IMG/VR virus record: IMGVR_UViG_2737471855_000014
DNA from: a virus
Lineage: Duplodnaviria > Heunggongvirae > Uroviricota > Caudoviricetes
Length of the DNA stretch: 6,370 bases
Direction: 5' to 3' (one strand)
In this document: piece after piece, positions 377-6,275 of the stretch
Layout of the letters: the number at the start of each line of letters is the position of its first letter
How positions within the stretch are numbered: the first letter of the stretch is position 1
The notes under the pieces: model-generated
Told to the model about the DNA's origin: nothing
Seen by the model: the letters and a program-made list of their open reading frames with translations, nothing else
Databases searched by the model: none
Position numbers and translations under genes: made by a program

Positions 377-592
377 ATGAAATCAATGGATAAGTTAACA
401 ACAGGTGTTGCCTATGGCACATCGGCGGGTAATGCTGGTTTCTGGGCATTGCAGTTACTCGATAAAGTAACTCCGTCACAGTGGGCTGCAATCGGTGTGC
501 TGGGTAGCCTGGTTTTTGGCCTGCTGACGTATCTGACAAATCTTTATTTCAAGATTAAAGAAGACAGGCGTAAGGCTGCGAGAGGAGAGTAA
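377..592 (+). CDS. essQ: class II holin (pinholin, phage 21 S21-like) with dual translational start
   Basis: ATG at 377 gives a 71-aa protein [71 protein letters not shown] with two predicted TMDs and a charged C-terminus. Met1-Lys-Ser-Met4 is the holin/antiholin dual-start arrangement. The track ORF 302..592 is the same frame extended upstream to a GTG. Symbol assigned from recollection of the Qin/DLP12 holins. Confidence 0.85.
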
Positions 593-596
593 TCCA

Positions 597-904
597 ATGA
601 CTCAAGACTATGAACTGGTTGTGAAAGGAGTCCGTAATTTTGAGAATAAAGTTACGGTAACTGTAGCCTTACAGGACAAAGAACGCTTTGACGGTGAAAT
701 TTTTGACCTGGATGTCGCCATGGACCGTGTTGAAGGAGCTGCGCTGGAGTTTTATGAGGCAGCAGCCAGAAGGAGCGTCCGGCAAGTCTTCCTGGAAGTA
801 GCAGAAAAATTGTCAGAAAAAGTTGAGTCTTATCTGCAGCATCAGTACTCCTTTAAGATTGAAAATCCTGCCAATAAGCACGAGCGTCCTCATCATAAAT
901 ATCT

Positions 905-908
<4 letters not shown>
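597..908 (+). CDS. ydfR: YdfR-like protein of unknown function (DUF1327-type), inserted between holin and endolysin
   Basis: 103-aa ORF. An AGAGGAGAG Shine-Dalgarno at 581-589 sits 7 nt before the ATG at 597, and the stop overlaps the endolysin start (ATGA at 905-908). Acidic, no TM segment. Matches my recollection of Qin ydfR (103 aa) between essQ and rrrQ. Confidence 0.8.
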
Positions 909-1932
<1,024 letters not shown>

Positions 1933-2182
1933 GGTAATATTAAATCGGAACATTTACATCGCGGAATGTAAAATTTAAATAAAAAGGACTCTTCCATGAG
2001 CCAAAATTCCTGAAATCTTAAGGGTAAGATAAAAGGTCTTAATCAGAATGACACGTTTTATTAATAAATAAAGCTATTCTTTCATTGCTGTGTTTTTCTT
2101 TACAAAAGTAATCCTTGCTATGGGTGGTTAATCATGCGTTAATGGTGTTCTGGTTTGTTACAAATTTATCTGAAGCAGTCAT

Positions 2183-2191
2183 TGTTATAAT
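2183..2191 (+). promoter_or_regulatory. candidate extended -10 promoter element (TGnTATAAT) upstream of cspI
   Basis: TGTTATAAT at 2183-2191, a perfect TATAAT with upstream TG, in an AT-rich leader. It would give a roughly 95-nt 5' UTR before cspI, in line with the long leaders of cold-shock genes. No good -35 hexamer at 17 bp spacing. Sequence pattern only. Confidence 0.3.
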
Positions 2192-2294
2192 TTTATTATT
2201 TGTACCTCTTGAGATTTCCTTGTTGGTTTTTCTCTCTGATATTTTTTTTCGGACCATTCTGCCCAAGGGCTAATTTCTTCAAAAGGTAATAATT

Positions 2295-2507
2295 ATGTCT
2301 AACAAAATGACTGGTTTAGTGAAATGGTTTAACCCTGAAAAAGGTTTTGGTTTCATCACGCCGAAAGATGGCAGCAAAGATGTGTTTGTCCATTTCTCAG
2401 CAATTCAGAGCAACGATTTCAAAACATTAACTGAGAATCAGGAAGTTGAATTTGGTATTGAGAACGGACCTAAAGGTCCTGCCGCTGTTCATGTAGTGGC
2501 GCTTTGA
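2295..2507 (+). CDS. cspI: cold-shock protein, CspA family (S1-like cold-shock domain)
   Basis: 70-aa [73 protein letters not shown] with RNP1 (KGFGFI) and RNP2 (VFVHF) motifs. AAGGTAA Shine-Dalgarno-like sequence upstream. Matches my recollection of Qin CspI. Confidence 0.9.
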
Positions 2508-2711
2508 GGTAGACAATATTACAAACCATATTCACTTTAGATGCCCGTGTTGTCATGGTTCCCAGTATAGAACATCATCTTTTGATGTTTCTGACATGAA
2601 TCCTTTCGGGGCAAAATGTATCTTTTGTAAATCAATGATGATTACATTTGATAATATTTCACAATACTTAAATGCCAGCCGTCTGTCGTTGGATTTAAAA
2701 AAGTGAAAATG

Positions 2712-4595: not shown

Positions 4596-5141
4596 ATGGA
4601 AGTCAACAAAAAGCAGCTGGCTGACATTTTCGGTGCGAGTATCCGTACCATTCAGAACTGGCAGGAACAGGGAATGCCCGTTCTGCGAGGCGGTGGCAAG
4701 GGTAATGAGGTGCTTTATGATTCTGCCGCCGTCATAAAATGGTATGCCGAAAGGGATGCTGAAATTGAGAACGAAAAGCTGCGCCGGGAAGTTGAAGAAC
4801 TGCGGCAGGCCAGCGAGACAGATCTCCAGCCAGGGACTATTGAGTACGAACGCCATCGACTTACGCGTGCGCAGGCCGACGCACAGGAGCTGAAAAATGC
4901 CAGAGACTCCGCTGAAGTGGTGGAAACCGCATTCTGTACTTTCGTGCTGTCGCGGATCGCAGGTGAAATTGCCAGTATTCTCGACGGGATCCCCCTGTCG
5001 GTGCAGCGGCGTTTTCCGGAACTGGAAAACCGACATGTTGATTTCCTGAAACGGGATATCATCAAAGCCATGAACAAAGCAGCCGCGCTGGATGAACTGA
5101 TAACGGGGCGCACTTTGACGGTGACCAGAGCGGCACGGTGA
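4596..5141 (+). CDS. nohA: terminase small subunit (lambda Nu1-like) with a non-native C-terminal 12 residues
   Basis: 181-aa ORF starting MEVNKKQLADIFGASIRTIQNWQEQGMPVLRGGG, the Nu1 winged-HTH DNA-binding domain. Nu1-like through residue 169 (...AALDELI), then TGRTLTVTRAAR in place of lambda's PGLLSEYIEQSG. Directly downstream of cosB, as in lambda. Symbol is by position; the exact Qin paralogue is uncertain. Confidence 0.85.
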   Translation: MEVNKKQLADIFGASIRTIQNWQEQGMPVLRGGGKGNEVLYDSAAVIKWYAERDAEIENEKLRREVEELRQASETDLQPGTIEYERHRLTRAQADAQELKNARDSAEVVETAFCTFVLSRIAGEIASILDGIPLSVQRRFPELENRHVDFLKRDIIKAMNKAAALDELITGRTLTVTRAAR

Positions 5142-5401
5142 ATGGTGTCACGCCGCCAGCAGTTCAGCACCTGACCGCAGAAGTCACCGCAGACAGCGGG
5201 GAATACCAGGTGCTGGCGCGCTGGGACACGCCGAAGGTGGTGAAGGGGGTGAGCTTTATGCTTCGCCTGACCGTGGCAGCGGACGACGGCAGTGAGCGGT
5301 TGGTCAGCACGGCCCGGACGACGGAAACCACATATCGCTTCACGCAGCTGGCGCTGGGAAATTACAGGCTGACAGTCCGGGCGGTAAATGCATGGGGACA
5401 G
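5110..5401 (+). pseudogene. internal fragment of a J-like tail tip/host-specificity protein (gene remnant)
   Basis: Track frame 5138..5425 (GTG start) encodes [86 protein letters not shown]. By recollection this matches an internal region of lambda J (over 1100 aa). No credible start or Shine-Dalgarno. Bounded by junctions with Nu1 upstream and stf downstream. Confidence 0.65.
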
Positions 5402-5700
5402 CCGGTGCACATACCCATTCGATGACATTTGTTTCAGGTGGTTCCAGTGGTGCTCCGGGAAGTGGATCACCTGATTATTCTAAATACAGTGTTAACACTT
5501 CTTCTGCAGGCGCTCATACGCACTCTGTATCGGGTACTGCTGCAAGCGCAGGTGCACACGCACATACTGTCGGTATTGGTGCTCATACGCACTCCGTTGC
5601 GATTGGTTCACATGGACATACCATCACCGTTAACGCTGCTGGTAACGCGGAAAACACCGTCAAAAACATCGCATTTAACTATATTGTGAGGCTTGCGTAA
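5392..5700 (+). pseudogene. C-terminal fragment of a side tail fibre protein (Stf-like), possibly still translatable from a fortuitous ATG
   Basis: 102-aa frame with repeated G-A-H-T/A-H-S/T motifs and the conserved fibre C-terminus ...[24 protein letters not shown]. The N-terminal shaft portion of the fibre is absent. The stop overlaps the tfa start (TAATG at 5698-5702). Confidence 0.7.
5404..5622 (+). repeat. tandemly reiterated HxH tail-fibre repeat units (coding repeats)
   Basis: Five related 18-21-nt units encoding G-A-H-T-H-S-like peptides: GGTGCACATACCCATTCG (5404-5421), GCAGGCGCTCATACGCACTCT (5506-5526), GCAGGTGCACACGCACATACT (5548-5568), GGTGCTCATACGCACTCC (5578-5595) and GGTTCACATGGACATACC (5605-5622). 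Confidence 0.6.
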
Positions 5701-6275
5701 TGGCATTCAGAATGAGTGAACAACCACGGACCATAAAAATTTATAATCTGCTGGCCGGAACTAATGAATTTATTGGTGAAGGTGACGCATATATTCCGCC
5801 TCATACAGGTCTGCCAGCAAACAGTACCGATATTGCACCGCCAGATATTCCGGCAGGCTTCGTGGCTGTTTTCAACAGTGATGAGGCATCGTGGCATCTC
5901 GTTGAAGATCATCGGGGTAAAACGGTTTATGACGTGGCATCAGGGGACGCGTTATTTATTTCTGAACTCGGTCCGTTACCGGAAAATGTTACCTGGTTAT
6001 CGCCGGGAGGGGAATATCAGAAGTGGAACGGCACAGCCTGGGTGAAGGATACGGAAGCAGAAAAACTGTTCCGGATCCGGGAGGCGGAAGAAACAAAAAA
6101 CAGCCTGATGCAGATAGCCAGTGAGCATATAGCGCCGCTTCAGGATGCTGTGGATCTGGAGATCGCAACGGAGGAAGAAACCTTGTTGCTGGAAGCCTGG
6201 AAAAAGTATCGGGTGTTGCTGAACCGTGTTGATACATCAACTGCACCGGATATTGAATGGCCAGCACTGCCGTAG
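5700..6275 (+). CDS. tfaQ: tail fibre assembly protein (lambda Tfa-like chaperone)
   Basis: 191-aa [54 protein letters not shown]..., which closely matches my recollection of lambda Tfa along its length. The start overlaps the stop of the fibre fragment. Ends at TAG 6273-6275. Confidence 0.85.

Follow-up and report, generated by a model that had tools for sequence, protein, structure and literature searches.

Does a gene that stands between a holin and an endolysin gene, and touches both, belong to the machinery of lysis? The question is raised by a 6,370-nucleotide stretch of viral DNA (Caudoviricetes; IMG/VR record IMGVR_UViG_2737471855_000014), the whole of which we call the window, in which an open reading frame (ORF) of 103 amino acids, at positions 597–908, separates the gene of a phage 21-type (S21-type) pinholin from that of a signal-arrest-release (SAR) endolysin. 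An earlier account made from the letters alone, referred to below as the sequence-only reading, had considered a role in lysis timing or regulation plausible on the grounds of this tight coupling. We have found that the ORF is ydfR of the Escherichia coli K-12 Qin prophage, and the reading that we favour, with a probability of about one half, is that YdfR is a late-expressed cytoplasmic accessory protein, moron-like in its mode of carriage, whose domain likely acts on host RNase E, and that in this lineage only the gene also delivers ribosomes in cis to the endolysin start. The parts of this reading are not equally firm. That ydfR is an accessory gene lying outside the lysis machinery is probable; the action of its domain on RNase E is tentative and on the doubtful side, the binding data being published and the consequence being our own inference. 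The gene itself was already known, and what we add is the deletion origin of its overlap with the endolysin gene, the lack of a Shine-Dalgarno (SD) sequence before the latter, and the portable cassette context.

Identity of the gene and its junctions with holin and endolysin

The ORF is a previously annotated gene. Indeed, the window is over its full length 100% identical in DNA to many E. coli chromosomes, where it forms a Qin-type defective prophage, and in the matching locus the genes follow in the order holin (essD), ydfR, rrrQ, rzpQ, cspI, ymcF, ynfR, ynfN, gnsB, ydfO, ynfO, nohA, tail-fibre remnants and tfaQ. The RefSeq feature between the holin gene and rrrQ is ydfR (WP_000189916.1, "YdfR family protein"), and the product matches the Pfam family PF07041 (DUF1327) over the entire model (positions 1–93 of 93) with 179.9 bits, the Pfam cut-off being 25, and E 1.1e-53. 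The Pfam match, the RefSeq annotation and the ratio of non-synonymous to synonymous substitution (dN/dS, see below) exclude a chance ORF, and the placement of a 103-residue ORF between an S21-type holin and a SAR-type lysozyme by the sequence-only reading is confirmed by the ORF listing and by Pfam. The elements concerned are the following, all on the plus strand:

377–592, plus strand: S21-type class II holin (pinholin; essQ/essD-like) of 71 residues, PF04971 "P21 holin S", E 4e-34
583–588, plus strand: SD sequence GAGGAG for ydfR, read from the sequence within the last holin codons (R-G-E)
597–908, plus strand: ydfR, 103 residues, ATG start, DUF1327/YdfR family
894–904, plus strand: deletion junction (~894–897) joined to the SD-less endolysin leader ATAAATATCT, from alignment with the 174- and 206-residue forms
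905–1438, plus strand: rrrQ, SAR-type lysozyme of 177 residues, PF00959, E 1e-23

A scan of 5426 complete E. coli genomes located ydfR-like DNA in 3647, of which 1789 have the full-length form, so that about two thirds of the genomes carry DNA of a family to which no function is assigned; truncated alleles of 25 and 44 residues occur, and the 103-residue form is also found in the isolated phages PhiR42_1 and HannyBb. Searched exhaustively with HMMER, a set of 1.84 billion representative proteins yielded no more than 73 DUF1327 members, many of them fragmentary, and no link to any characterised family. When one genome per species was scanned (185,579 species), matches came from Escherichia only, apart from two metagenome bins, labelled Veillonella parvula and Bacillota, in which the matching sequences are 84–99% identical to the E. 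coli gene; contamination of these bins by E. coli contigs is suspected. Profile searching extends the range to Shigella, Yersinia and Cronobacter, and DUF1327 is a small family confined to enterobacterial phages and prophages. NCBIfam gave no match for YdfR, the PHROGs search gave families of unknown function only, and a search of the literature produced a single, incidental mention of DUF1327, "YDFR" standing there mostly for a melanoma cell line.

The SD of ydfR is the strongest in the cassette, with an anti-SD duplex of −9.5 kcal/mol, and lies 8 nt before the ATG. The strong SD of the sequence-only reading therefore stands as regards its strength and not as regards its place, said to be 7 nt after the holin stop: the motif is inside the holin codons, and it is the ydfR ATG (597) that follows the holin stop TAA (590–592), after a gap of 4 nt. 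At its other end the ydfR stop overlaps the rrrQ ATG in an ATGA at 905–908, as had been noted, and the gene is indeed physically coupled to both neighbours in this window. What had been drawn from this arrangement, namely stoichiometric expression with the lysis proteins, is more than the overlap alone can establish. Across positions 252–1986, which include the holin start and the Rz end, there is no promoter-like or terminator-like site, which suggests that ydfR is probably made solely from the late lysis transcript.

The junctions were surveyed in 175 loci (phage genomes, viral contigs and genomes) encoding 47 distinct DUF1327 proteins, and the results obtained on the two sides of the gene are of a different nature. 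On the holin side the gene starts 4 nt past the holin stop in 172 of the 174 evaluable loci, with homologues down to ~45% identity; one exception has 3 nt and the other an anomalous value, and one more locus is cut at a contig end. On the endolysin side, the −4 nt gap between DUF1327 and the endolysin gene R occurs only in the 103-residue Qin lineage (81 near-identical loci); outside this lineage the gap is either 42–55 nt or 169–452 nt, and in Evi, Stx2-86 (gp06) and PhiR12_2 it is occupied by a gene on the opposite strand.

Alignment at the DNA level suggests how the overlap came about. The window tracks the 174- and 206-residue forms of the gene to CGTCCTCATC and then jumps into ATAAATATCTATGA, which is the conserved R leader located immediately 5' of the lysozyme ATG in DUF1327-bearing phages; the leader CCTGATAAATATCC-ATG is common to all six other phages compared. 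As judged from this alignment, the 103-residue Qin form is a deletion derivative of the longer 174/206-residue form, and since the match to the longer forms passes directly into the R leader, the ATGA overlap is a by-product of the deletion, restricted to the Qin lineage and not ancestral.

The leader of R carries no SD, the anti-SD duplex being at +1.2 kcal/mol in the window and at +0.6 in BP-4795 and mEp460, the two other DUF1327-bearing phages scored. The cassettes devoid of DUF1327 bear out the view that ydfR is an insertion with respect to phage 21-type cassettes, S and R being adjacent in 434, cdtI, SfI and VT2phi_272 and separated by DUF1327 in other phages. In the 933W-type cassette of VT2phi_272 the endolysin gene starts 4 nt after S, on an S-embedded SD (−8.5) which is the one that ydfR uses here, and in the 21/434-type cassettes (434, cdtI and SfI) S and R overlap in TAATG, with an SD at −7.1. 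As R has no SD in the window and its ATG overlaps the ydfR stop, endolysin translation here most likely proceeds by termination-reinitiation from ydfR. We propose that ydfR would be translated from the strong SD at the holin end, in the slot held by the endolysin in 933W-type cassettes, and that the insertion would have left the endolysin gene without an SD, R being then translated by reinitiation after the ydfR stop. The position and the overlap of ydfR in the cassette would then reflect the insertion of a cassette followed by a deletion, and not a built-in role in lysis.

This arrangement bears on experiments. Because the endolysin gene has no SD of its own, engineering or deleting ydfR should alter endolysin expression in cis. 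In the design of the Keio collection, the resistance cassette lies directly upstream of the SD-less SAR endolysin gene, which overlaps the retained ydfR 3' end. For this reason we suspect that the envelope leakiness of the Keio ydfR mutant, which appears, as does that of ydfU, in the hit lists of an envelope-integrity screen with chlorophenol red-β-D-galactopyranoside (CPRG; PMC3879167, supplementary files 2 and 5), is of polar origin, with endolysin expression disturbed in cis and transcription reading through from the resistance cassette. Apart from the RNase E interaction treated below, this screen hit is the sole functional datum on the family.

Distribution of DUF1327 and its cargo genes

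In the phage collection DUF1327 is found in 100 of the 438 records that have this type of holin and is absent from the other 338 (~77%), and ydfR is therefore optional for the S21-type lysis system. It had been suggested to survey whether the ORF is always found between S21-like holins and SAR endolysins, and this is not the case, as the members from outside Escherichia are commonly located outside lysis cassettes. These members, from Yersinia, Cronobacter and metagenomic phages, are ~30–40% identical and lie between the minor tail genes M and L (L177, L191, L192, L196 and L198), between the genes of tail assembly protein I and central fibre J (L178, L188, L189, L190 and L197), after the tape-measure gene (L176) or, in Cronobacter, after Rz and before KilA-N and terminase genes. 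In three contigs (L199:3177–4225, L200 and L201) a tandem DUF1327 pair, of 72 and 96–107 residues, stands after a holin of the PF16080 family and is followed by an opposite-strand ORF of 86 residues and then by a lysozyme of 177 residues.

Some further small ORFs of the tail clusters were looked at in this connection. Between the tape-measure gene and M there are ORFs of 70–73 residues (L184:6032–6244, minus strand; L192:2844–3062, plus strand; L196:2841–3062, plus strand), that of L184 belonging to phrog_2891, which by eye have a DUF1327-like pattern and a similar EAKKQLK helix end; profile comparison of DUF1327 with the ~70-residue phrog_2891 ORFs gave a weak result (E 0.004, probability 8%). 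An ORF of 108 residues which faces the phrog_25324 gene in L184 was considered as a divergent DUF1327 member and rejected, its hhalign probability being 0.4%.

A convergent small ORF usually follows DUF1327 in the Yersinia, Cronobacter and metagenomic loci, and such an ORF is present also in Evi, Stx2-86 and PhiR12_2. Two of these units can be delimited as follows:

L190:3460–4222 and L191:3475–4222: Yersinia cassette of ~755 bp, at two tail-gene junctions (I/J and M/L)
L004:2501–3167: DUF1327 and convergent ORF of Evi, between holin and lysozyme

The ORF of ~99 residues in the metagenomic tail cassette L178 (phrog_25324) is 66% identical to the opposite-strand ORF that lies in Evi between DUF1327 and the lysozyme; tail-cluster cassettes of the L178 type are also present in Yersinia prophages, and a convergent ORF of the same kind, of 98–99 residues, follows DUF1327 in Yersinia and Cronobacter. 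The Yersinia DUF1327 protein of 72 residues is encoded at the I/J junction in one contig and at the M/L junction in others, the DNA being near-identical over ~755 bp with sharp borders. This cassette starts just past the upstream stop codon and with its own SD, has a minus-strand hairpin terminator between the convergent ORFs, for which there is a counterpart in Evi, and is closed by a GC-rich hairpin and a T-run that directly precede the ATG start of the following tail gene. Its GC content differs modestly from that of its flanks (0.39 versus 0.42–0.49), and the difference is equally modest for ydfR (0.436, versus 0.463 in the holin gene and 0.506 in R).

In Yersinia rochesterensis (L196) the cassette ends and the DUF1327 domain are kept and the cargo is replaced, and elsewhere the cargo comes from families unrelated to one another (phrog_25324, phrog_1853, phrog_2572 and others). 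These observations, of the same cassette ends with a replaced cargo and of unrelated cargo families, indicate by comparison of sequences that the moron-like unit consists of a constant DUF1327 gene and an exchangeable cargo, the region of the latter having been lost in the case of the Qin ydfR. The possibility that the convergent ORF is a constant partner was rejected, as at least three unrelated PHROG families, as well as unclassified ORFs, are found in that position. The unit would insert flush between late genes, be it between S and R, after Rz, after the tape-measure gene, between M and L or between I and J.

Lambdoid morons, such as bor and lom of lambda, are extra genes located between conserved late genes (Hendrix and colleagues). 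DUF1327 resembles them in being present or absent between the same neighbours, in the flush fit of the insertions with gene borders, in the occurrence of the same unit at different junctions and in a cargo gene with its own terminator; the GC content of the cassette is modestly below that of the flanks. It differs from them in that ydfR relies on the late transcript and on an SD embedded in the holin gene, so that it should be expressed during lytic growth rather than by the lysogen, and in that the unit consists of two convergent genes, with a cargo that can be swapped. The junction between S and R, like the tail-gene junctions of the relatives, would thus be a site of a portable cassette with variable cargo that can be mined for new lysogen-expressed functions.

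A two-gene unit invites the alternative explanation that DUF1327 is the late partner of the convergent cargo, be it as regulator, antidote or anti-exclusion factor, which neutralises a function expressed in the lysogen, and that the Qin copy was orphaned by the deletion. We consider this unlikely. The recurrence of the convergent ORF in Evi, Stx2-86, PhiR12_2 and the Yersinia, Cronobacter and metagenomic loci fits such a partnership, as does the fact that the pair moves between junctions as one unit, with a terminator of its own for the cargo gene, and the deletion that gave rise to the Qin form took out exactly the cargo region. However, unrelated cargo families next to a constant DUF1327 argue against a specific protein–protein partnership, the phrog_25324 ORF is also found without an adjacent DUF1327, and the cargo-less forms of 103 and 114 residues, more frequent in the sample than any other, appear to be under selection all the same. 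Moreover, PADLOC returned no match for YdfR, for the longer DUF1327 forms or for the three cargo ORFs tested.

The YdfR domain and host RNase E

Two parts can be distinguished in the YdfR protein:

597–821, plus strand: conserved N-terminal domain, residues 1–75 (from alignments, the AlphaFold2 (AF2) model and dN/dS)
822–908, plus strand: lineage-specific C-terminal tail, residues 76–103 (from alignments and AF2 per-residue confidence)

The lengths of the DUF1327 proteins range from 72 to 329 residues, and in the family alignment conservation is limited to the first ~72–75 residues, beyond which the sequences are unrelated; no Pfam domain was found in the C-terminal extensions of the longer forms (169–329 residues). 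In comparison with diverged homologues of E. coli phages, the N-terminal domain has a dN/dS of 0.18–0.32, and in more distant pairs the synonymous sites are saturated, with non-synonymous differences of 0.32–0.36 per site; at the level of sequence, this indicates purifying selection on the domain as a protein. Its conservation persists to ~30% identity across genera and genomic contexts; none of the aligned stretches of the distant members is sufficiently invariant to serve in a pattern scan.

The structure prediction that had been advised for the ORF gives a soluble β-β-β-helix domain. The AF2 model, obtained from a diverse alignment, has a predicted local distance difference test (pLDDT) value of 82 overall and of ~90 in the N-terminal domain, where three antiparallel β-strands (residues 5–14, 18–27 and 34–43) precede a long helix that begins at residue 50. 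This helix reaches to about residue 89, and residues 94–103 are disordered, with values below 50; the block means decrease from 88 (residues 71–80) to 65 (81–90) and 45 (91–100). With 19 Asp and Glu versus 15 Lys and Arg residues the protein has an isoelectric point (pI) of 5.6, so that its description as acidic holds mildly for the whole and well for the N-terminal domain (pI 4.7), and not for the tail, which is basic (pI 8.3). The maximum hydropathy over 19 residues is 0.67, versus 1.72 in the holin, and neither a transmembrane segment nor a signal sequence was detected by hydropathy analysis. A sequence-profile search of the PDB gave no YdfR match below E 0.16, and fold and sequence searches of the PDB and BFVD gave no informative match. 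The functional part is thus modelled as an acidic cytoplasmic domain of ~72–75 residues with a β-β-β-helix layout, and the 28-residue tail is a lineage-specific read-through from a deletion.

RNase E is the target of several binding modulators, among them phiKZ Dip, T7 gp0.7, T4 Srd and the host proteins RraA/RraB and RapZ. RapZ and RraA are also treated in a recent study in which YdfR(1–72) was recovered in a two-hybrid screen and is reported to bind the catalytic half of RNase E (PMC13232886, 2026). According to the same work, Rne(1–598) co-elutes with Strep-YdfR and RNA co-purifies in the eluate, the overproduction of YdfR (without the holin) causes no growth defect, and ydfR is essentially silent in normal growth (PMC13232886). 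The conserved domain, as delimited by our alignments, has the same extent as the published RNase E-binding fragment, and these 72 residues would be the proper unit for examining RNase E binding. As with the known modulators, YdfR is small, phage-encoded and reported to bind RNase E, with a RapZ-like contact to the N-terminal catalytic half (PMC13232886), and it shares its acidic character with several inhibitors of nucleic-acid-binding enzymes. On the other hand, its effect on the transcriptome is small (PMC13232886), and neither in sequence nor in fold does it resemble any of these modulators. In the mechanism that we put forward, residues 1–72 would bind host RNase E in its N-terminal, catalytic half and may thereby modulate RNA decay in late lytic growth.

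A number of observations speak against the interpretation of YdfR as a moron-like accessory protein that acts on RNase E. In the sampled Escherichia phages the gene is almost always directly after the holin gene, as a holin-linked function predicts, and ydfR, being without its own promoter or terminator, is no textbook moron. The relatives from tail clusters, ~30–40% identical, could differ in function. As for RNase E, few transcripts changed when YdfR was overexpressed, and for the full-length fusion Rne(1–597) was the sole partner to give a two-hybrid signal (PMC13232886).

The ideas of a mobile unit and of RNase E as a target can also be combined, DUF1327 being in this case the late half of a mobile two-gene cassette that acts via RNase E, with a cargo that is a candidate lysogen-expressed exclusion or defence gene and with the Qin ydfR as an orphan. 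We regard this combination as quite improbable. If true, its role would be to clear the cargo or antisense transcripts that arise from convergent transcription, or to protect late phage mRNAs, and temperate phages would have a new means to silence accessory genes or to stabilise messages at the transition from lysogeny to lysis.

Dedicated regulators of lysis are well known, such as the S21-71 antiholin, T4 RI, P1 LydB and Mu releasin. It has to be considered whether YdfR is one more of these, binding either the pinholin, at its cytoplasmic tail, or the unreleased SAR endolysin and so tuning the lysis trigger. The S21-type holins carry their own antiholin through a dual start, which counts against this proposal. 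Like the dedicated regulators, and like the extra lysis-timing proteins that other phages encode, for example ORF52 of BSPM4 (PMC11657625), ydfR stands within a lysis cassette and is expressed along with the holin: its start is 4 nt past the holin stop in all but two of the evaluable Escherichia phage loci, and it shares one transcript with S, R and Rz, between which neither a promoter nor a terminator was found. Unlike them, YdfR has no transmembrane or periplasmic segment and no homology to any of these proteins, its gene is missing from most cassettes with the same holin, including those of the 21, 434 and 933W types, and homologues occur in tail clusters, after Rz and after the unrelated holin family PF16080. 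The coupling to R, for its part, is a deletion artefact. The step from coupling to a lysis role, as made in the sequence-only reading, is thus not sustained by the origin of the overlap, by the 100 of 438 records that carry the gene, by the protein itself or by its relatives in tail clusters, and we hold a function in lysis timing to be improbable. Finally, that the ORF has no function as a protein, being kept merely to bring ribosomes to an SD-less endolysin start or hitch-hiking in a defective prophage, is very improbable, because even if R has no SD and overlaps the ydfR stop, the tail is junk-like, truncated alleles of 25 and 44 residues exist and overexpression is almost without phenotype (PMC13232886), the dN/dS values and the conservation of the domain to ~30% identity across genera and contexts argue for a selected protein, the ORF ends 42–452 nt before R in most phages and is no coupling device there, and the 103-residue form is also carried by the isolated phages PhiR42_1 and HannyBb.

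Other features of the prophage window

With its neighbours, ydfR makes up a lysis cassette of four genes, namely those of the holin, YdfR, the lysozyme and the Rz-like spanin. The holin shares 83% identity with the phage-21-like S of SfI, and RefSeq labels it a phage lysis protein. It has an MKSM dual start, with Met1 at 377 and Met4 at 386, a motif typical of the S21 antiholin/holin pair; the ORF as listed extends upstream to a GTG at 302, which is unlikely to be the true start. RrrQ is 33% identical to the SAR endolysin of 434, with the E-8-D-5-T catalytic motif aligned, and has a Gly/Ala-rich, weakly hydrophobic N-terminus with a hydropathy maximum of 1.67 at residue 9. Its gene is followed by those of the spanins, the R stop overlapping the Rz start in a GTGA at 1435–1438:

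1435–1932, plus strand: rzpQ, Rz-like i-spanin, GTG start, PF10721 and phrog_312 "Rz-like spanin"
1628–1882, plus strand: rzoQ-like o-spanin (Rz1) lipoprotein ORF, out of frame inside Rz, with lipobox LTSC, read from the sequence

The Rz1-type ORF, which we take to be the rzoQ of the K-12 annotation, is listed as 1610–1882, its start at 1628 and its lipobox having been read from the sequence, and the matching RefSeq record does not list it among its features. Farther downstream, at 4596–5700, the terminase small-subunit gene nohA runs directly into fragments of the tail-tip gene J and of tail-fibre genes (RefSeq pseudogenes), and on this sequence evidence the prophage is defective at this place, its head genes and most tail genes having been deleted. 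Two Rfam matches are above the gathering score, one to the cspA thermoregulator 5' untranslated region before cspI (2149–2534, plus strand, 112.8 bits) and the other to the small RNA candidate IS009 within tfaQ (6043–6241, plus strand, 221.5 bits).
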